IMG/VR virus record: IMGVR_UViG_2713896904_000008
Coordinates: 1-23,195 of that record
Reading direction: 5' to 3' (one strand)
DNA: 23,195 nucleotides
DNA from: a virus
Lineage: Duplodnaviria > Heunggongvirae > Uroviricota > Caudoviricetes
Positions 712-13,313 of the stretch are shown piece after piece. The translations under genes and the position numbers were made by a program. The notes beneath the pieces were generated by a model that saw only the letters and a list, made by a program, of their open reading frames with translations, did not search any database and was not told where the DNA came from. The first letter of the stretch is position 1. Every line of letters starts with the position of its first letter.

Positions 712-1669
712 ATTGGCAGTAAGAAAAGTTAGTACCGTACATTTCATCATGAAGCATTGCAACATTGCGTTTCTGTTCTTCTTCCTCGTCTACCGCATCA
801 CTAGAAAAATGAGATTTGCCCTTAAAAGAACGAAGCAATTGCAGTGCAGCCATCGGATCACGCATCACATCGATTTTCACTTCTACTTCATCATTTGCGG
901 CCTCATCAGCCGCGTTTTCAACTACTGCCACCGGAGCAACTTCTTTAGTTTTCAGTTCTTCAATCTCAGCTTTCTGGGCTTCGATGATCTGGTCTTTTTC
1001 TTCCAGTGCAGCTTTCAGTTTTTCAATCTCAGCTTTCTGTGCTTCGATGATCTGGTCTTTTTCTTCCAGTGAAGTAAAGCGCGGAGAAACAGCATTCACC
1101 TGTGCTTCCAGTTCCAGGAATGCTTCACAAGATTCAATGCGTTCTTTCAATTCACCTTCATACGCAACCACTTCTACTACTTCTTTCTCAGTAGCGTGGC
1201 TGTTAAAGAATACAGCAAAGTAAGGATTACCGGATTTGGTGAAGTTCAGTTTAGCTTTTCCGGTAACTTCTTTACGACGACCAAAGGTAATGTTGCAATC
1301 AGCGGTATCCTGAAAATCCATGTTAGGAGCGGAAACAATAGCAGTATCACCAGCAATCACCAGGTGGAACAGTTCAGAAGAGTTCTTAACGGTGAAAGTA
1401 ACGATGTGGTCTACTGCAACGTCTTTAGCAGGTTTAACACGGTCGATTGCTTTACGAATGCCGTTAGGCAGTTTACCGTCAACACCAAAGCCAGCCGCGA
1501 TCAGTGCTTCACGATGTGCTTTAAAGCCAGCGAAAGCGGATTTCTGCTGCGCAAAGGAAACATGAGCAACAACTTTCGGCTGAATCTTCTTGTTTGCTTC
1601 GGTGCCAAATTTGATAACTGCTTTAGCGTTGGTTACTTCGTTAGTGAAAAAGTTAGCGGAAAATAACAT
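710..1669 (-). CDS. Hypothetical abundant early protein with central coiled-coil tandem repeat and acidic C-terminus (319 aa)
   Basis: Long ORF with AGGAG RBS 8 nt upstream of ATG; highly biased codon usage; 21-aa repeat LEEKDQIIEAQKAEIEKLKAA x2; plus-strand ORFs 713-1666 are its shadows. Confidence 0.75.
   Translation of the reverse strand: MLFSANFFTNEVTNAKAVIKFGTEANKKIQPKVVAHVSFAQQKSAFAGFKAHREALIAAGFGVDGKLPNGIRKAIDRVKPAKDVAVDHIVTFTVKNSSELFHLVIAGDTAIVSAPNMDFQDTADCNITFGRRKEVTGKAKLNFTKSGNPYFAVFFNSHATEKEVVEVVAYEGELKERIESCEAFLELEAQVNAVSPRFTSLEEKDQIIEAQKAEIEKLKAALEEKDQIIEAQKAEIEELKTKEVAPVAVVENAADEAANDEVEVKIDVMRDPMAALQLLRSFKGKSHFSSDAVDEEEEQKRNVAMLHDEMYGTNFSYCQ
949..1074. repeat. 63-bp perfect-to-near-perfect tandem duplication (x2) inside the 319-aa gene
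   Basis: ttcaatctcagctttctg(g/t)gcttcgatgatctggtctttttcttccagtg repeated with 63-nt offset. Confidence 0.7.
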
Positions 1670-1714
1670 TATAAATACTCCTGTGGAAAGTTAGTTTTAA
1701 TTGTTCATCGCAAA

Positions 1715-1750
1715 AGCCTCCTTGTTGCCGCAAGGGGGCTTTTTTATTTT
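1715..1750 (+). terminator. Intrinsic terminator hairpin, possibly bidirectional
   Basis: agcctccttg-ttgccg-caagggggct stem followed by TTTTTATTTT on + strand; on the minus strand the hairpin is followed by UUUUG. Confidence 0.6.
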
Positions 1751-1783
1751 TAAAGCCATCATATAATTCTCAGTCAAAGTTGA

Positions 1784-1966
1784 TTACCAAACGGTAGCTT
1801 CAATCTTCACTTTAATGTCATACTTCTTTAAAAGTTTGTGGAAGGTTGATTGATCAATACCTTCACCTTTAAACCATTCACCCATCACTACATCAGGTGT
1901 CAGTTCAAAATAACGCTTTGCCATTTCTAAAACGATTTCACGAGTGAACTTAACAGGTCGTGCCAT
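1784..1966 (-). CDS. Small putative HTH DNA-binding protein (60 aa), paralog of 5426..5656
   Basis: Strong RBS AGGAGGA; shares N-motif (R-P-x-K/R-F-T/D-R-E) and C-motif (GI-x-Q/S-x-F-H/Y-K-L/S-L-K/H-K-Y/V-D-I/L-K) with ORFs 5426..5656 and 5685..6287. Confidence 0.6.
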   Translation of the reverse strand: MARPVKFTREIVLEMAKRYFELTPDVVMGEWFKGEGIDQSTFHKLLKKYDIKVKIEATVW

Positions 1967-2031
1967 CTTAAATCCTCCTAAATCTGGATTAATGATTTCT
2001 TAAAAAAAGAGCGTTAACCGCTCACTATTAT

Positions 2032-2060
2032 TTATATGGGGATTGTTTTTAATTTTTCAA
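2032..2060 (-). promoter_or_regulatory. Sigma70-like promoter for the leftward 1966..1784 gene (minus-strand TTGAAA-17-ATATAA) with a 5-bp-arm inverted repeat (2009-2023) at the predicted start site
   Basis: Hexamers read on reverse complement: -35 at 2055-2060, -10 at 2032-2037, 17-nt spacer. Confidence 0.4.
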
Positions 2061-2474
2061 CCCCTCACATTTATCTCTTATATATGTATTTATAACAGAG
2101 ATATGTTAAAATGTTATTTGGATGTTATCAGGCGTGTTAAATGTGTTAAACCACAGCACGAATTGCTAAAGCGAAGAACACGAATTAACCAAATTGATGT
2201 TTATTCAATCAATTTAGAAAATTGCATAGCACTTTTTGCTAAAGCGGTGAGCATTAATTGAGCTATGAATTGTAAAGATTTGTTACAAGATTTTCTCTCA
2301 GATCCAAATCTTCACAGACATATAACAATTTAACAGAAGGATAACAAATGGAAGGAAAATCGGTAAATTTTCACTTTCAATACAAATATTATACCACATT
2401 TTTCTCGAATCGTCAATTATAGCACCGAACCGACATAGTGTCAAGAATGGACTTTCAAACCTACACTATGAAAA

Positions 2475-2640
2475 TTGCCCCTGAATTTTGCCCCCGAATA
2501 AAATCCCCAAGATTCTACTATCCCATTTTTGCCCCTGAAATTCCGGGAAACAGTGATTTTGCCCCTCATTTTTGCCCCTGAAATGCCAATAATTGCCCCT
2601 GAAAATCTAATTTTTGCCCCTGAAATTTGCCCCCGAAAAG
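2475..2640. repeat. Array of 8 direct repeats of TTTTGCCCC(T/C)GAAA (iteron-like)
   Basis: Copies at about 2475, 2486, 2526, 2557, 2569, 2592, 2611 and 2626; same motif forms the left arm of the terminator at 5122-5146. Confidence 0.7.
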
Positions 2641-2773
2641 GATTGGTGAGAAAAACTCTTTATAAAACATTAACTTAGTGATTGGTGAAAGCGGGGGATC
2701 GGGCGTGCATAGATATTATATAACACATTCGCTACGCTCATGTGTAAAACCAAAAATAACCAAAAAGATATTA

Positions 2774-2793
2774 GGAGGGCTTTAGCCCGACTG
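2774..2793. repeat. 20-bp direct repeat ggagggctttagcccgactg, copy 1
   Basis: Exact match to 3164-3183. Confidence 0.7.
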
Positions 2794-3163
2794 CGCGAAG
2801 CGCCAACCAATTGCTTCTAGTAACAACTAATTTAAACTAGATGATACTAGATGGTCTTAGAAGGAATTAACTAGTTTGCTCGCTCGCTTCGCTCACTCTC
2901 AAACGTCTGCGACGCCACTGCGTGGCATCGAGAATCACTTTCGAAAGGATTTTCTTGAAAGGGATTTTAAACTAGTTACTAACTGATTCTAGTAAACGAA
3001 CGAAGTGAGTAACAATCACTTTCTAGAAAGGTATTGGTATCCCTTCGGGATTGCAACCTTCGGTTGCTAAATTGCTTCCTGATTATTATTTCTCCAAAAG
3101 AAAGATTCTTATATTCTAAAGATACTTCTTCGTTTTGGTGATGATTTAATCAAAATCTATGAA

Positions 3164-3183
3164 GGAGGGCTTTAGCCCGACTG
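3164..3183. repeat. 20-bp direct repeat ggagggctttagcccgactg, copy 2
   Basis: Exact match to 2774-2793; the two copies bracket a ~370-bp CTAG-rich, hairpin-rich ORF-free segment. Confidence 0.7.
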
Positions 3184-3271
3184 AATCCAATCACTTCCAA
3201 ATAGATAAAAAATTCTCGTTATAAATACTAGTGTAATTTGTTTGATTCACTTTCTTTTAGAGGATACCACT

Positions 3272-3724
3272 ATGATCAATACTAAAACTCCTTTCGTACT
3301 TCTGGGTCTGAACCATGATGATAATCTGGATATGATGCATGTTTTCGCTAATCGTGGTTATAACATCATTCGTCATTCCGAAGACTCCAATTTCTCAACT
3401 GCTTTCTATGCTCTTAAACGTAATGGTCGCCCTACGGTGATCGTAGACTGCTTTACTGATGAAGGTCGTGAACAATACAACAACATTCCGGCAATTATTG
3501 TTCGTGATGACCTGCCGTTTGATGTTCGTGAATATGACGTTGATTTAGGCTCTTACTATGGGATCGCCGATCTTGACCAGATTATGGCTGATTACGGTAA
3601 ACAACCCGCTCAGGAAGCCCAAGAACACGATGAAGAGGATGAGGAAAACGAAGACTACGCACCAATCTGTTTCTCTTCTCAGAATGGCTTCTACGGTTAC
3701 GATGAAGGCTTAGATATGCTGTAA
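3272..3724 (+). CDS. Hypothetical acidic protein (150 aa from ATG 3272; ORF track starts at TTG 3242)
   Basis: AGAGGA RBS 7 nt before ATG 3272; biased codon usage; C-terminal Asp/Glu-rich tail (QEAQEHDEEDEENEDY). Confidence 0.7.
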   Translation: MINTKTPFVLLGLNHDDNLDMMHVFANRGYNIIRHSEDSNFSTAFYALKRNGRPTVIVDCFTDEGREQYNNIPAIIVRDDLPFDVREYDVDLGSYYGIADLDQIMADYGKQPAQEAQEHDEEDEENEDYAPICFSSQNGFYGYDEGLDML

Positions 3725-3759
3725 GTTAGGTCAACCCTTTGGCGTCTTGTCAAGGGGTG

Positions 3760-3788
3760 TTGACAAAATTTTCTGACTTTTTTATGAT
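3760..3788 (+). promoter_or_regulatory. Strong sigma70-like promoter TTGACA-17-TATGAT overlapping a 7-bp inverted repeat (ttgtcaa 3747-3753 / ttgacaa 3760-3766)
   Basis: -35 at 3760-3765, -10 at 3783-3788, exact 17-nt spacer; a second TTGACA at 3797-3802 with a weaker -10. Confidence 0.6.
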
Positions 3789-3844
3789 TATCGCACTTGA
3801 CAATTTTGAACCTATTTGACCTAGATTTGTAAAGAGGATGTAAC

Positions 3845-4177
3845 ATGAAAGAATTTACCATCACTAAATCCCTGTATGACTGGACTGTTAAAATCTCCGG
3901 CAAAACCGTTTCTGTAAGCCCTAGCCATGTAGAAAATGATTGGGGCGTATCCCGTGAAACTATCTCCCGTAGTATGCATGTTCCGTTTGATCTGATGTCC
4001 TTAACTGGTATTCATGCAATGCTGGAAGTTCGCGAACAATTCGAAGCTGGTAATCACAATGCGACTCCAGTTAGCAATCACCTTCTTACTAATGAAGAAC
4101 GTGAAATCATCGAAAACTGGCGTTATGAATATGCGATTCCTTATTATGAAGAAGATCAGGTAGAAATCGATTGGTAA
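3845..4177 (+). CDS. Hypothetical protein (110 aa)
   Basis: AGAGGA RBS; biased codon usage; immediately downstream of the strong promoter. Confidence 0.7.
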   Translation: MKEFTITKSLYDWTVKISGKTVSVSPSHVENDWGVSRETISRSMHVPFDLMSLTGIHAMLEVREQFEAGNHNATPVSNHLLTNEEREIIENWRYEYAIPYYEEDQVEIDW

Positions 4178-4279
4178 TAAATTTCTATTATAAATAAAAT
4201 TGTTCCGCGCGCCGTTGGCGTGTGGACAGTTAAAAACAGGAGAATCAATCACTAAACCGTTTAAGGGGAATTTTTTACT

Positions 4280-5113
4280 ATGAATACTGTTACTACTATG
4301 AATACTGCTGTTAAAACTGCTTCCGTGTCTCTGGTTGTTGATAACACCAAACCGCTGACCATGTCTTCTCGTCAGATCGCTGAATTTACCGGAAAAGAAC
4401 ACCACAAAGTTAAAGTTGATATAACTAAGATGTTGAATGCTCTAGGTTATGAAGATCACGCGAAGTTTCGCGTCATCTATTTTGACCAATACGGACGCGA
4501 ACAAAACGAATATCAACTAGACGAAGAAATGACTCTGACTCTTGTCACTGGTTACGATGTTAAGCGTCGAATGGTTGTTATTCAGGAATGGAAACGACTG
4601 AAAGAAGAAAATGAAAAACTGCGTTCTCAGCAAGTCAACCCATACGCAAACATGACTAAGCTCGATTGGATTCGTGAGGCAATGGAATTGGAAGCCGCAA
4701 ACGAACAACTGATTCAAGAAAAGAAACAACTGGTTGAATTGCATGTTCGTAAAGCTATCGACACACACAGTCTTAGCCGCTTATTAGGCGAAAAACGAGG
4801 CTCTACGAAGGTACAAATTATTCTGAAAGGTTTATGTGCTGCTGGTGTTCTTGAGCGTCGTCTGGATGCTTCTGGTAAGCCTAAAGGCTATGATCTGCTT
4901 CCTCCTGGCTATATGTTCGCTCGTATGTCGGCACACGGTCAGATCGAGTTCACTGCTGATGCTATTCCGCATCTCGTAAAACTCGGATTGCTTGAAGAAG
5001 AAAAGGCCGCAACTTTGAAATTGCCACAGCCGAATAACTCACGAGCAATCGTCAATAATACTGCTTTGCTGATTCGTCAGAATGCTGGATCACTGGAACA
5101 CTTCGGACTGTGA
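4280..5113 (+). CDS. Rha-family phage regulatory protein / antirepressor-like (277 aa)
   Basis: N-terminal segment LTMSSRQIAEFTGKEHHKVKVDITKML resembles the Phage_pRha domain; C-terminal region resembles antirepressor (Ant/KilAC-like) domains; assignment by motif recall only. Confidence 0.65.
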   Translation: MNTVTTMNTAVKTASVSLVVDNTKPLTMSSRQIAEFTGKEHHKVKVDITKMLNALGYEDHAKFRVIYFDQYGREQNEYQLDEEMTLTLVTGYDVKRRMVVIQEWKRLKEENEKLRSQQVNPYANMTKLDWIREAMELEAANEQLIQEKKQLVELHVRKAIDTHSLSRLLGEKRGSTKVQIILKGLCAAGVLERRLDASGKPKGYDLLPPGYMFARMSAHGQIEFTADAIPHLVKLGLLEEEKAATLKLPQPNNSRAIVNNTALLIRQNAGSLEHFGL

Positions 5114-5121
5114 TAATTTTT

Positions 5122-5146
5122 GCCCCTGAATTTCAGGGGCTTTTTG
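5122..5146 (+). terminator. Rho-independent terminator (gcccctg-aattt-caggggc + TTTTT)
   Basis: Perfect stem and T-run immediately after the Rha-like gene stop. Confidence 0.7.
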
Positions 5147-5187
5147 TATCTGGAGTTTTTCGCCGAAAACCTGCAATACAGAATTTC

Positions 5188-5384
5188 GAAAGAATCAATA
5201 GGTTAGAGATGAGCGCAGTTTTGCGCCGATTGATTCAAGTTTGAATTTCTCGAAAGAATCAACCACTTAGATAGATACGCTGAACTTTAAGCACATCCCC
5301 TCAGTTTTGAGGGCATCTATAGATCAGTCCAAATCTGGACTCATCGGAAGAATCAATGACTTAGAGATGTGCTCAGTTTTGAGC
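5188..5384. repeat. Three copies of a ~40-bp unit (G)GAAAGAATCAA-N4-TTAGAGATG-hairpin, each hairpin with a conserved GTTT loop and covarying stem
   Basis: Hairpins gcgca-gttt-tgcgc (5213-5226), ccctca-gttt-tgaggg (5298-5313), gctca-gttt-tgagc (5371-5384); stems differ but stay complementary. Confidence 0.6.
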
Positions 5385-5390
5385 GGATAT

Positions 5391-5418
5391 AAAAAAGGCC
5401 AACCCCGAAGGATTGGCC
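5391..5418 (-). terminator. Minus-strand rho-independent terminator with UUCG loop for the leftward operon
   Basis: On the reverse complement: ggccaatcc-ttcg-gggttggcc followed by TTTTTT. Confidence 0.6.
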
Positions 5419-5425
5419 TAGAGAA

Positions 5426-5656
5426 TCAAATTCCTGTTGCTTCTACCATTTCACCATCAACCTGAACAAAGAATTTCAAATCAACTTTATGGAGTGATTT
5501 GTAGAATTGAGCGATTGAAATACCGTGTTCACTCAATACTTGCTCTTTTTCGGCTTTACCTTTCGGCGCTTGATAGTACGCTTTTACAATCGCTGCCAGT
5601 TGTTCACGATCAAAACGGCAAGGACGACCGCGAGTAGCTTTAGTAGTCATAGTCAT
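5426..5656 (-). CDS. Small putative HTH DNA-binding protein (76 aa; likely start at the internal ATG 5650)
   Basis: RBS GGAG upstream; N-motif TRGRPCRFDREQLAAIVKAYYQ and C-motif GISIAQFYKSLHKVDLK shared with 1784..1966 and 5685..6287. Confidence 0.6.
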   Translation of the reverse strand: MTMTTKATRGRPCRFDREQLAAIVKAYYQAPKGKAEKEQVLSEHGISIAQFYKSLHKVDLKFFVQVDGEMVEATGI

Positions 5657-5684
5657 TTCTCCAAATTAAAGTGAATGTTCACCT

Positions 5685-6287
5685 TTATTTAGAGGACTTA
5701 CATTTTATCGGAAAAAGTTCTCCATCGTCAATACTCATAAAGAACTCTGCCTTAATCCCGTACTTCTTCAACCGTGAATAGTATGTACCCCGACTTATAT
5801 CAACCTTGCGAAGCACTTCAAAGAACCCTTTAGGATCGTTGTAATAGTGGCTATAACGCACGTTAGCGAGTTCAACGAATAGTTCCCTTGTATCACCATA
5901 GCCTTTCTTGAAAGCCTCGTTACGATAGCGTGTAATTGCGTGATTCAATCTCTTCTGTTTCAACACTTCCCTGATCGGTGTCCACTGCAACCGATAGATA
6001 GGACCGTCATCCACTCGATAATAACGCTTGATATCAAAATCAAACCATTCACGGACTCTCTGGAACTCTGTCTGTGATGTTCGGTGCTTCTTAAAGAAGT
6101 TGTGAATATCTGTATATCCCTGATCGCGATACAACTCTATTAAAATTTGCTTCGCTTCCTCGCGACTAAAGCCGGATGTTGTGTAATCAGTCTTCTTGTG
6201 ATGGTGCTTAACTGGCAAACGATATTCATGATCGGTACAAGACAAGGCTAATTCTAATTCATCTCTTTCTTGCTGATTAATTAGCAT
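5685..6287 (-). CDS. Hypothetical protein (200 aa) carrying both paralog motifs separated by a ~100-aa insert; putative DNA-binding
   Basis: AGGGGG RBS; [16 protein letters not shown] and [17 protein letters not shown] match the motifs of the two small paralogs; divergent from the terminase gene. Confidence 0.65.
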
Positions 6288-6301
6288 ACAACCCCCTTTG
6301 A

Positions 6302-6329
6302 TTAATACCCGTATTTATCAAAATATCAA
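6302..6329 (-). promoter_or_regulatory. Candidate minus-strand promoter (TTGATA-16-TATTAA) for the leftward operon, in the divergent region with the terminase gene
   Basis: Read on reverse complement: -35 at 6324-6329, -10 at 6302-6307. Confidence 0.35.
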
Positions 6330-6372
6330 CAATTTAATAAATACCTTCATATTTCGTAATGAGGGTAATTAC

Positions 6373-8280
6373 ATGAAACTGATTTCGAACAAGGCCAAAT
6401 TAAAAAAGATTCTTAAAAATGCCGCAAAATATATCACTCCACCGCCTAAACTCCTTCCGTCTGAATGGTGCGAAGCGAATATGGTGCTGGTAGATGGTCC
6501 TCAAGCTGGGGATAAAGTTAAATTGTTGTCATTCCAAAAAGGCATGATTGATGCACCTTTCCTTGAGAACAAGAAAAAGTATGTTCTGATGACCAGTGCG
6601 CAGATCGGAAAGACTACCATCCTGAACGGTATCCTGTTTAACCAGATGGCTAACGATCCATGCAATATGATTATCGGACAATCAACCGCTAAAGAAATGT
6701 CTCAATATCTCGCGGGTAAGATCCGACCGTCTATCGAAGCATGTGATGCATTAAAAGACGTGGTTACAGACAAGAATGATCGCAATGCGGTTAACAACAA
6801 TAACCAGCTACAGCTAAAAACGAATCACTTCCTGTACATGGTATCGCTTACCAGTCCATCAACCCTACGTGGTAAGACCGCAAAGGTTGGATTGCTTGAC
6901 GAAATCGATGCTGCTACAGCCTCAGAAGAAGGTGATCCGGTGGCGCTGGCTGCTAACCGTTTAACTACCTTTGGCGATGAAGGTCGATTAGTCGTATCCA
7001 GTACCCCGACCAGTAAGCTCGGAAGCATTAACCAACAATGGTTATCAAGCGATATGCGTATGTTTTTTGTTCCGTGTCCTCATTGCGGTAGACACCAGGT
7101 GATCGAGTGGGAAAACGTTCAATTTGAATGGCGTAACATCGATGGTAAGAATTTACCCGATCCTGATACCGCTCGTTATATTTGCCCCCATTGTAAGAAC
7201 GCATGGACAGAAGGGGAACGAATCAGGGCAGTAGCGCAAGGCGAGTGGAGAGCAACCCGTGAAAGTGAAGTAGCAGGATTCTGGATTAGCCGTCTGTATT
7301 CACCTTTCAGCACGATCCGCGCTTGTGTGGTTGATTTTAGTCATGCGTGGCAATCCTTTGATTTACAATCATTTTATAACACCGTGTTAGGCAAGGTATA
7401 CGATGATCAGGACACGGCAGTAGAAGCAAATGAACTGGAAAAACTCAAAACAGATGTTTCTATCGAGAATATCCCTGATGACGTGATTTTCTTGTGCTCA
7501 GGAATTGACCAGCAATTGGATCGCGCAGAATCTACCATCTTAGGTGTAGCGAAAGATAAGGTTTACATTCTGGATCACCGTAGCTTTTACGATCATAACT
7601 GTGAACGATACGAATCACCTGTATGGGATCGTCTGGTTAACTTCAAGAAAACCAAATTCTATAACGTTAATGGTGAACGTGTGCCAATGCTCGCCAGCTT
7701 CCTCGATACATCAAACGGTCGATTCACTCAAGCCGGATACCGTATTTGTGGTAAGTGGAAGAACCTACACGCTATTAAAGGTAGTTCATCCGGTAATGCT
7801 CCAGTGATTCCGGTTAAACCTACCCGCACAGGTGGTCATGAATTGCTTATGCTGGGCGTTAACGTTGGTAAATCCGCTGTTCGTGAAATGCTGGTTAGAA
7901 ACCTGAAAGATAATCCTCATATTGGCTTAGAAATATCAGAAACCGTTCCTGATGATTATCTCGATCAGCTTTTGAGTGAATCCATCAAGCGTACTACTAC
8001 TGGTGTTCGTTGGGTGAAAAATCCAGGTAGTACCCGAAACGAGGCTCTCGACTGTCTGGTTTATAGCTATGCTGCTTCTCGCTACGTTCTTTCAAAAATG
8101 TCATGGGATAAACTCATTGCAATGAAAGACAGCTTAAACCGTGTTGTCGAAGAATCCGTAGAAGCTCATAAATCGCAATCTGACGAGCAAATCGAAGAAA
8201 CTAAGCCAAACCCACGACCACAGCGTCAAAACATCGCCAGACGTCCAAATAGAGGCCGTAGCTGGGTAACATCGTTCTAA
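6373..8280 (+). CDS. Terminase large subunit (lambda GpA-like), 635 aa from ATG 6373
   Basis: GAGGG RBS 7 nt before ATG 6373 (ORF track starts at 6298); Walker A-like [11 protein letters not shown]; size and position immediately upstream of portal. Confidence 0.85.
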
Positions 8281-12616: not shown

Positions 12617-12907
12617 ATGTTCAAATTATCAGAATCACAATTAAATCGAATGTTTAAGAGTGCTCCTGTTTTTGTCGTGGAAGGTGGTAAATCAATTCGT
12701 GCTTACCATGAAATTACTACTACCGACGAACAAGGGGTATGGACAGAATCAGAATTCTTATTCTGTCGTGAGGGAGATTTAAAGCAAGGTGATATTGTCA
12801 TTGTAGAAAATCAGCGTTTCAAAGTTCAATACATTAAGCGCAATGGTGACAATACCAGTGATTGCTTTATCACTTTAGCAGGGGGTGCTCATGCTCGCTA
12901 CCGTTAA
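12617..12907 (+). CDS. Putative head-completion / head-tail adaptor protein (96 aa)
   Basis: GGGGGTAA RBS; small ORF directly after capsid gene; synteny-based. Confidence 0.5.
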   Translation: MFKLSESQLNRMFKSAPVFVVEGGKSIRAYHEITTTDEQGVWTESEFLFCREGDLKQGDIVIVENQRFKVQYIKRNGDNTSDCFITLAGGAHARYR

Positions 12908-13313
12908 TAATATGCCACGTCTTAAGATTAAACGTGCTTTACAGGATATTATCGAACAAGATCTAGGTCTGGCTTTAAACGTAGAACAAACTCAGCAAGG
13001 CTTTAGTGATGACGTGGTTTGTTGGATCACCGGAATGAATGAGACTTACAATAGGGTCCGTGGCGGTAATGCAATGCAAGCTGAATGCGTTATCGAAATG
13101 CAATTGTATTCTCAGATTCATGAAACCAAAATTCATGAGGGTATTTGCCAGATAATCCAGATTCAGCCAGATAACCCACGTTTTAAAGATTTGGGCTTCG
13201 CTATTTCAGATATCACTCCAGTAGCCTCTAATACCGATTATGACGACGATTCTAGTGATGGGGGTATCGTTGGGACACTTAGCCTTAAATTTTCTTATCT
13301 AGCGCGTTTTTAA
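12891..13313 (+). CDS. Putative head-tail joining / tail completion protein (141 aa from ATG 12891; ORF track starts at GTG 12885)
   Basis: AGGGGG 5 nt before ATG 12891; 17-nt overlap with upstream gene suggests translational coupling; synteny-based. Confidence 0.5.
   Translation: MLATVNNMPRLKIKRALQDIIEQDLGLALNVEQTQQGFSDDVVCWITGMNETYNRVRGGNAMQAECVIEMQLYSQIHETKIHEGICQIIQIQPDNPRFKDLGFAISDITPVASNTDYDDDSSDGGIVGTLSLKFSYLARF

Follow-up and report, generated by a model that had tools for sequence, protein, structure and literature searches.

The window analysed here, the whole 23,195 nucleotides of IMG/VR virus record IMGVR_UViG_2713896904_000008, belongs to a prophage of about 35 kb and contains, between two intrinsic terminators, a non-coding array of short palindromes and consensus sites for integration host factor (IHF). 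Rha-family proteins, one of which is encoded directly upstream of this array, are among the commonest regulators of phages and are annotated as antirepressors or Rha regulators in hundreds of phages, whose hosts include Gram-negative as well as Gram-positive bacteria. The order of genes is rha-family regulator on the plus strand, terminator, array, terminator, two minus-strand genes encoding proteins of 76 and 200 amino acids, large terminase (TerL), portal and protease–capsid fusion. The resident rha gene (4280–5113, +) is identified by a match to the Pfam family Phage_pRha (2.6e-11) and to PHROG anti-repressor families. The left border of the array is an intrinsic-terminator-like hairpin, GCCCCTGAATTTCAGGGGC, followed by a T-run (5122–5145, +; hairpin 5122–5140), which ends the rha operon; the right border is a second such hairpin and T-run on the minus strand (5396–5419), which ends the operon of the 200- and 76-amino-acid proteins. 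Both are consensus matches with T-runs, in agreement with an earlier reading of the bare sequence (hereafter the original prediction), which had bounded the region by a rightward and a leftward terminator. The array lies at least 33 nt past the rha stop codon, beyond the rha terminator, and a terminator scan called just the two flanking hairpins there and reported none of the array hairpins as intrinsic terminators.

The original prediction described three repeated units with covarying hairpins, each unit a conserved linear part followed by a hairpin with a constant GTTT loop and a stem that differs in sequence while remaining complementary. We find this arrangement in all three units (5186–5230, 5250–5319 and 5344–5388) of the spacer at 5146–5395, with three corrections that concern the number of hairpins, the make-up of unit 2 and the start of the large terminase gene. 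The linear part common to the units, GAATCAA-N4-TTAGA, that is, TCGRAAGAATCAA-N4-TTAGA, agrees in all three without a mismatch with the E. coli IHF consensus WATCAANNNNTTR. The three sites, all on the plus strand, are AATCAATAGGTTA (5193–5205), AATCAACCACTTA (5257–5269) and AATCAATGACTTA (5351–5363), and their spacings of 64 and 94 bp correspond to about 6.1 and 9.0 helical turns. Seven matches to this consensus occur in the whole window, three of them inside 170 bp of the array, where 2.1 are expected per window, and none of 100 shuffles of the window reached seven.

The palindromes, all given on the plus strand, are more numerous than the three first described, and most can be assigned to the half-site classes D, N and H that are defined below. 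Unit 1 ends in the GTTT-loop hairpin GCGCA gttt TGCGC (5213–5226, class D), and its linear part lies within a longer segment (5163–5206) that also holds a decayed palindrome, CTGCAATACAG. The palindrome ATTCA agtt TGAAT (5233–5246) opens unit 2, which is irregular because a decayed hairpin with one stem mismatch, GCTGA actt TAAGC (5279–5292; the same decayed copy is present in relatives), sits between its linear part and its GTTT hairpin, CCCTCA gttt TGAGGG (5298–5313, class N), the latter followed by CATCTAT as in rha open reading frames (ORFs). A class H palindrome with GATC/CATC feet, AGTCCA aatc TGGACT (5326–5341), precedes unit 3 and its GTTT-loop hairpin, GCTCA gttt TGAGC (5371–5384, class N). 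The hairpins at 5233–5246, 5279–5292 and 5326–5341 are thus additional to those in the original prediction. Perfect hairpins with a stem of at least 5 and a loop of 4 number five in the 250-nt spacer, compared with 0.29 in shuffled sequences (maximum 3 in 2000), and the fold of the array has a z-score of -4.55 as single-stranded DNA and -2.66 as RNA. At 5233–5292 and at 5326–5384 the architecture is that of an extragenic IHF site flanked by palindromes.

A scan of viral contigs with the hairpins of units 1 and 3 and their 5' flanks placed about 20 of 24 matches inside the coding sequences of Rha-family genes of very different phages. In the matched genes the palindrome extends to 12-nt arms, TAGATGTGCTCA gttt TGAGCACATCTA, and codes for ..LDVLSFEHIY... 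The foot-junction pattern CATCTATAGATS..., searched in viral contigs, gave chance coding matches except in a Firmicute-type phage (L162), which has, at about 4600–5000, several short hairpins with AAAT/ATTT-type loops just upstream of a rha-family gene, one of them preceded by CATCTATAGATG. Sibling prophages were collected from viral contigs, 29 by way of the 200-amino-acid protein and 21 by way of TerL. Among these prophages (L002–L030), which are otherwise 90–99% identical, the DNA-binding N-terminal domain of Rha is strongly mosaic (the part homologous to window 4340–4560). Ten or more alleles occur, P22-like, Roi-like and LSFE-type domains among them, and all share a common leader (MNTVT..SLVVDNTKPLTMS) and similar C-terminal halves.

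Much of the array can be matched to these alleles piece by piece. The segment 5163–5206 is a non-coding copy of an rha ORF segment (..IRKPATQNFEKINNLG..), 38 of its 44 nucleotides being identical to the allele-iv ORF of sibling L002; unit 2 (5235–5282) and unit 3 are identical at 37 of 45 and 40 of 51 positions, respectively, to an allele-ii ORF (..DQLKTEFVERINNLGY..). The palindromes match the intragenic boxes of still other alleles: 21 of 23 nucleotides at 5207–5229 with that of L006 (DERNFAPI), 22 of 25 at 5321–5345 with that of L014, and all 21 at 5364–5384 with that of L023 and L061. The segments matched are 20–50-nt pieces of the N-terminal coding region of Rha and Roi genes, from the part that codes for the stretch between the recognition helix and the wing. 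In these alleles the IHF site is formed by the nucleotides that code for (K/I)IN(N/D)L, and the linear parts of the units are identical to the corresponding stretch of P22 rha at 20–25 of 24–30 nt. P22 rha itself has the hairpin GAGCGCA tttt TGCGTT (GAGCGCAttttTGCGTT) directly followed by GAAAAAATCAATAACTTAGGG (AATCAATAACTTA), and in HK022 roi the palindrome CTGCATTGCAG is followed 16 nt later by an exact IHF consensus, AATCAATGATTTA. IHF site 3 of the array is identical to the site in P22-group rha ORFs and matches the IINDL-coding site of HK022 roi at 12 of 13 positions. HK022 Roi, which has an ANT domain and a weak full-length match to Phage_pRha, is homologous to allele iv of the present prophage family. 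All 27 distinct P22-like ORFs keep ATC-AAY-RAC-TTA, with ATC for Ile and TTA for Leu of INDL/INNL, while four different codons serve for the adjacent Gly; at synonymous sites this is the mark of selection for the IHF consensus. Judged by these similarities, the array units are tandem copies of the palindrome and IHF-site module of Rha and Roi genes. An odd ORF of 151 codons in an AT-rich viral contig (L057, 11550–12002) carries two in-frame copies of the Rha box (..AELNLDMSKFAHIYTDN.. and ..AEFEIDALSFEHIYLDT..), both palindromes with 12-bp arms, which indicates that the Rha-box segment duplicates elsewhere too.

The resident rha gene carries the reference copy, an element of the kind that gave rise to the array units: the palindrome GATC ACGCGA agtt TCGCGT CATC at 4454–4477 (+), which codes for DHAKFRVI and belongs to class K (helix GKEHHKVKVD). 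The amino acids that it encodes differ from those of LSFE-type alleles, and the palindrome is retained at the homologous place. In general form the element is GATG-N6-NNTT-N6'-CATC, a palindrome with arms of 10–12 bp, a 4-bp centre, GAT[GC]/[GC]ATC feet and a CA..TG top, which in P22- and Roi-type alleles adjoins an IHF site. Its conservation was assessed on 80 Rha loci found by peptide patterns, which reduce to 58 non-identical sites of uniform length. In these 58 sites, 86.5% of the cells of alignment columns 14–25 and 30–41 pair, and double-sided changes number 95 compared with 34 ± 5.9 in shuffles, none of 500 of which reached 95. The covariation score is 0.363, against 0.150 when shuffled and at most 0.135 with slid partners; the pair 23–32, to take one, is UA in 26 sites, CG in 20 and GC in 12, and is never unpaired. 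The coupled changes alter the protein, the codons that go together being Leu CTC with Glu GAG, Ser AGC with Ala GCT, Ser TCC with Gly GGA, Ala GCG with Arg CGC and Pro CCC with Gly GGG. At the foot the Asp codon is GAT in 58 of 58 sites, the next Asp is GAC in 47 of 58, and Phe is TTT in all 58. A palindrome at the same place is present in the Rha genes of E. coli P13374, Aeromonas LPM4, Vibrio ICP1, Bacillus BCP6, Paenibacillus Willow, Bacteroides vB_BfrS_23 and Latilactobacillus P1, and was not found at that place in the Rha gene of Pseudomonas D14L; the genes that bear it come from phages of Proteobacteria, Firmicutes and Bacteroidetes. On this comparative evidence the intragenic palindrome is a real, conserved element. 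A literature search that did not extend to the 1995 rha and 1996 roi papers yielded no description of a hairpin or palindrome in rha, and the element has no Rfam match.

Covariation of this kind could reflect either a folded strand or a two-fold symmetric duplex read by a protein, and the exceptions to pairing are informative in this respect. Among the non-Watson–Crick cells of the 58 sites, G.T (22) and A.C (28) show no sense-strand bias, and their similar frequency favours a double-stranded palindrome read by a protein over an RNA hairpin. The sequence of the arms, furthermore, follows the protein. The residue two positions after the invariant His of the motif GK.H..V varies with the four bases of the arm that adjoin the centre: N goes with CTCA, CTGA or TTGA in 28 of 33 cases, H with TCCA or CCCA in 23 of 28, D with CGCA or AGCA in 20 of 27, and K with GCGA or GCCA in 4 of 5. 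By the classical helix-turn-helix register we infer that this specificity residue would lie at the start of the predicted recognition helix. The pairing of residue and half-site is seen in near-identical E. coli alleles (HKNV with CTCA/CTGA, HKHV with TCCA, HKDV with GCGCA, HHKV with GCGA) and recurs on unrelated protein backbones: it holds in the LDREHTDCLLTGYS group, in P22 (HADV with GCGCA), in Paenibacillus and ICP1 (D with CGCA) and in Bacillus and Bacteroides (K with GCCA). The palindrome is therefore most likely, as far as its sequence allows a prediction, a double-stranded operator of the winged-helix DNA-binding domain of Rha; a Rha dimer would bind it, and the covariation would express the two-fold symmetry of a half-site that co-evolves with its reader. 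Two points weigh against this interpretation. The residue and the half-site are encoded within about 25 codons of each other, so that linkage and phylogeny inflate their association, and boxes with different arms in one phage each stay symmetric, which a reader specific for structure, whether of a hairpin or of a cruciform, would also explain.

Such a structure-specific element, in which the hairpins act as folded RNA or as extruded or single-stranded DNA and the reader sees the feet, the CA/TG top and the NNTT loop, seems to us improbable. It would suit possible roles as mRNA processing or stability elements, or as hairpin targets of a nuclease or recombinase, and it accommodates the seven palindromes with different arms that keep their internal complementarity within a single phage, the orientation of the NNTT loop (that of the rha sense strand) mostly retained in the non-coding copies, the strong fold of the array as DNA and the fact that the scan called the intragenic rha hairpin of the window terminator-like. 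Besides the equal mismatch frequencies and the missing Rfam match, however, a strong terminator stands before the array on either side, the array itself yielded no promoter-like site, the arm sequence tracks a recognition-helix residue, which a reader of structure alone would not require, and Roi-type palindromes with centres of 1 or 3 nt cannot form hairpins.

The array varies greatly among siblings. Twelve of the sibling sequences (L003, L004, L005, L010, L011, L016, L017, L018, L028 and L030 among them) have a spacer of only 14–15 nt between the same two terminators, and the remaining siblings have one to six hairpins in varying combinations, although their 200-amino-acid protein and TerL are 87–99% identical. 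All three IHF units are present only in L007 and L025, and an exact-unit scan of viral contigs had a sibling 96.5% identical to the window as its sole match. In this sibling (L001) and in L007 the box of unit 3 is GCGCA/TGCGC instead of the GCTCA/TGAGC of the window. Array-like DNA was detected by distant-mode BLAST in 23 of the 5426 complete E. coli genomes, only a part of the 55 genomes (about 1%) that carry the rha–76aa–200aa–terL module; it occupies a median of one place per genome, always in this prophage. Some features of the arrays look constrained. The CA..TG top is present in 12 of 14 distinct array hairpins and the GAT[GC]/[GC]ATC feet are partly retained, and in the 8 distinct IHF units from relatives none of the 9 consensus positions changes, and each of the 4 N positions does. 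The array is hypervariable and dispensable, with fast turnover by duplication, deletion and conversion.

This turnover bears directly on the first of the two functions proposed in the original prediction, that of a cos or pac site, in which three repeats bound by the small terminase subunit would stand with IHF sites as in lambda cosB. The general setting is suggestive: the terminase is a lambda gpA-type enzyme (Pfam GpA_ATPase 4.4e-56, GpA_nuclease 2.5e-44) and the portal is lambda-type, the three repeats lie about 1 kb from terL, IHF sites among repeats, a trait of cosB, are represented by the three exact matches to WATCAANNNNTTR, and the original prediction was right that no small terminase gene can be recognised near the large one, none being found in Pfam, PHROG or PDB comparisons. 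The proposal is not borne out, however. L003 and L005 have a TerL 99% identical to that of the window and yet just 14 nt between the terminators, and L002, whose TerL is likewise 99% identical, has a 64-nt array without an IHF unit; a packaging site cannot be optional among phages with the same terminase. Moreover, the array is neither adjacent to nor co-oriented with terL, from which a terminator and two minus-strand genes (5426–6287) separate it, its hairpin arms (GCGCA, CCCTCA, GCTCA, AGTCCA, ATTCA) lack the conserved core sequence of the R sites, and its units come from rha ORFs. The array would have no role in DNA packaging, and the cosB explanation retains only a very slight probability.

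The second proposal, that the repeats are binding sites for regulators, probably points in the right direction, with different proteins. The 76- and 200-amino-acid proteins, which had been suggested as binders, are unlikely in this role, being 87–98% identical in relatives without the array. The likely binders are IHF and winged helix-turn-helix proteins of the Rha type, because the units copy the palindrome and IHF-site module of Rha and Roi genes.

A dispersed repeat of the host that happened to land in the prophage, be it a repetitive extragenic palindrome or bacterial interspersed mosaic element (REP/BIME), a repetitive IHF-binding palindromic (RIP)-like element or a miniature inverted-repeat transposable element (MITE), has a negligible probability. 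The array does resemble BIME-1 and RIP elements in architecture, with an IHF site and flanking palindromes outside genes and between convergent genes; the genome survey given above, with about one place per genome and no dispersed chromosomal copies in 5426 genomes, refutes the REP/MITE identity for E. coli, and pattern scans of viral contigs met such arrays only in this prophage family. Other identities were dropped on simpler grounds. A lambdoid nut site was rejected since no boxA-like match (CGCTCTT(T)A) exists on either strand of 5101–5430 and the region lies beyond the terminators. A CRISPR-like mini-array would have conserved repeats and unique spacers, whereas here the hairpin stems vary and the linear parts are conserved, and a resemblance to Cas12a repeats (GTAGAT) was abandoned for want of a conserved repeat.

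Taking the origin of the units and the nature of the intragenic palindrome together, we lean, with modest confidence, towards the view that the array is a cluster of putative operators for Rha proteins and IHF, that is, an accessory nucleoprotein platform. Bends introduced by IHF at its three sites would be spaced at 64 and 94 bp, close to 6 and 9 turns of the helix, and the cluster could serve to titrate Rha-type proteins, to sense them, or to keep the two convergent operons insulated from each other. Its boxes would mostly be of other specificity classes (D, N, H) than the class K resident Rha, classes that are carried by sibling alleles. The box of the resident Rha, ACGCGA, occurs only inside its own gene, neither in the array nor elsewhere in the window, and P22 likewise has no clear extra box. 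As the array offers no box of its class, the resident regulator is unlikely to use it, and we reject an array that serves the resident Rha; any reader would be a Rha protein of another phage, unless the array is a relic of past alleles. A role as silent cassettes for gene conversion is unlikely, the specificity residue lying about 20 codons upstream of the box and outside the array units. Besides the missing self-class box, several observations weigh against the operator cluster. Many relatives are without any array, so that any function must be accessory; the visibly decaying copies (5279–5292 and CTGCAATACAG in unit 1) are what non-functional fragments would be expected to look like; and the conservation of the IHF sites could be inherited from coding constraint in the source ORFs and not owed to selection on the array.

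The same observations are the strength of a neutral explanation, which we consider possible, if on the doubtful side: a spacer flanked by terminators would tolerate fragments of the recombination-prone N-terminal rha alleles as debris. As a part of it that we hold no more firmly, the fragments would have been joined by microhomology at GATG/CATC, TTAGA and ATCTAT and then duplicated in tandem; equally tentatively, palindromes and IHF sites would seem conserved since they were recently copied from ORFs under selection. This account is consistent with units homologous to fragments of at least four different rha alleles, with the highly mosaic N-domains of the family, with the absence of the array in about one third of relatives and its reshuffling in others, with decayed copies (5279–5292; CTGCAATACAG compared with CTGCAACGCAG in the ORF), with the lack of a box of the resident class, and with the L057 ORF, whose two in-frame box fragments show the segment to be duplication-prone elsewhere. 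Against it, 19 arrays contain 39 perfect hairpins where 2.4 are expected, and several array boxes are better palindromes than their nearest ORF counterpart (AGTCCA/TGGACT compared with GATCAGCTCAAAACTGA in allele ii). The IHF consensus positions are intact in 8 of 8 distinct units while flanks and N positions vary, both IHF spacings are near whole helical turns, and a known mechanism is wanting for the deposition of 20–60-nt ORF pieces 650 nt downstream of their source.

A bolder version of the operator cluster, which we regard as unlikely, would make the array a repertoire of decoy or sensor operators (N, H, D) for the Rha antirepressors of other phages, each coupled to IHF. The IHF site would stabilise the binding of Rha at each coupled box, a lysogen could sequester or eavesdrop on the antirepressor DNA-binding domains of incoming or co-resident phages, and the array would in effect be an inherited record of rival alleles that is rapidly reshuffled. 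Better supported than this decoy role is the more general proposal that Rha domains across phyla carry their own predicted operator in the codons after the recognition helix, with a simple code from residue to half-site.

The remaining features of the region concern the neighbouring genes and the prophage as a whole. The large terminase gene starts not at TTG 6298 but at ATG 6373, which has a GAGGG Shine–Dalgarno sequence upstream, and extends over 6373–8280; an AT-rich divergent region of 85 bp (6288–6372) separates it from the gene of the 200-amino-acid protein. The 76-amino-acid protein (5426–5656, −) and two segments of the 200-amino-acid protein (5685–6287, −) share the repeated motif ..S..[FY]Y..L.K..IK..FF...DGE.. 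and the same weak, non-significant match to the PA0613 family (E about 0.1); neither protein has any other match in Pfam, PHROG or PDB, and their candidacy as small terminase or as binders of the repeats was dropped on this account. Megablast and distant blastn comparisons of the region with 50,697 phage records gave no match, there is no close relative among deposited phages, a search of genome contigs with the 200-amino-acid protein gave nothing, and Rfam returned nothing relevant, at the gathering score on the whole window or at E<=1 on 1600–5500. In E. coli PD23 (L167, CP074052), at 4648–5200, the prophage borders at its left end on a truncated gene for the HicB antitoxin (hicB), annotated without its C-terminus, and the prophage appears to be inserted into the hicAB locus of that strain; no integrase is present at this hicB-side end. 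A 91-nt tRNA-Gln (anticodon TTG) called by ARAGORN at 13078–13168 (−) lies inside the plus-strand ORF 12885–13313, and its length and location suggest a false positive.

The ORF-free gap at 1966–3242 holds an iteron cluster (2476–2637) with 7–8 direct copies of TTGCCCCTGAA at spacings of 13, 41, 43, 21, 21 and 13 nt; matches with at most one mismatch number 9 in the window against 0.93 expected. The arms of the rha terminator (5121–5141) are the iteron TGCCCCTGAA, the only copies outside the cluster. Sibling prophages carry other iteron types in its place (AAACCTACACTA; GATGTACAAGG), and no co-variation between terminator type and iteron type was found across relatives. The same gap contains a perfect 21-nt direct repeat, AGGAGGGCTTTAGCCCGACTG, at 2773–2793 and 3163–3183, 390 nt apart, each copy with a small GGGC-TTTA-GCCC hairpin. 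For annotation, a false cos candidate is removed, and the iteron cluster makes a better candidate than the array, whether for an origin, for recognition in packaging or for the binding of a regulator.

The larger interest of the locus lies in the phylum-spanning, operator-like palindrome of Rha genes and its apparent residue-to-half-site code. Beyond two papers from the 1990s, one on roi and one on rha, the DNA targets of Rha proteins have to our knowledge received essentially no description. Should the embedded palindrome be their operator, the target of any Rha protein could be read from its own gene, a one-residue code (N, H, D and K for CTCA, TCCA, CGCA and GCCA) would be directly testable, and the IHF-dependence of rha and roi would gain a physical basis in the IHF site formed by the INNL/INDL codons.

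Among known systems, lambda cosB (R3-I1-R2-R1) shares with the array three repeats, IHF consensus sites and a gpA-type terminase, and differs in being adjacent to and co-oriented with the terminase genes, in being conserved with the terminase and in having cores that do not vary. BIME-1 and RIP elements of E. coli are likewise extragenic, placed between convergent transcription units and variable in copy number, with an IHF site and short palindromes; in contrast, the array is not dispersed and has no similarity to REP sequences, and its palindromes, of 14–16 nt, differ from each other and derive from phage ORFs. The rha gene of P22 and phi80 belongs to the late region, is harmful to hosts deficient in IHF, and is itself under the control of IHF (PMC4936722). 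In P22 the same order of hairpin and then IHF site is found, and rha stands upstream of the packaging genes as it does here, whereas the element is single and coding and no array follows the gene. Henthorn and Friedman reportedly observed in 1995 that the growth block caused by rha of phi80 and P22 is confined to hosts deficient in IHF. Clerget and Boccard are said to have shown in 1996 that the binding site of HK022 Roi lies inside the roi gene, beside an IHF site, and that IHF stabilises the complex, with which the proposed operator agrees. Roi, with its weak Phage_pRha-type N-domain, has the palindrome and exact IHF consensus in its ORF as the array modules have them, but as one intragenic site, compared with three to six copies that lie beyond the gene's terminator, belong to several box classes and are optional among relatives. 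The closest known case is thus the Roi/IHF site in HK022 roi together with the IHF-regulated rha of P22 and phi80, and what sets the array apart is that this module stands outside the gene, is multiplied and is of mixed specificity.

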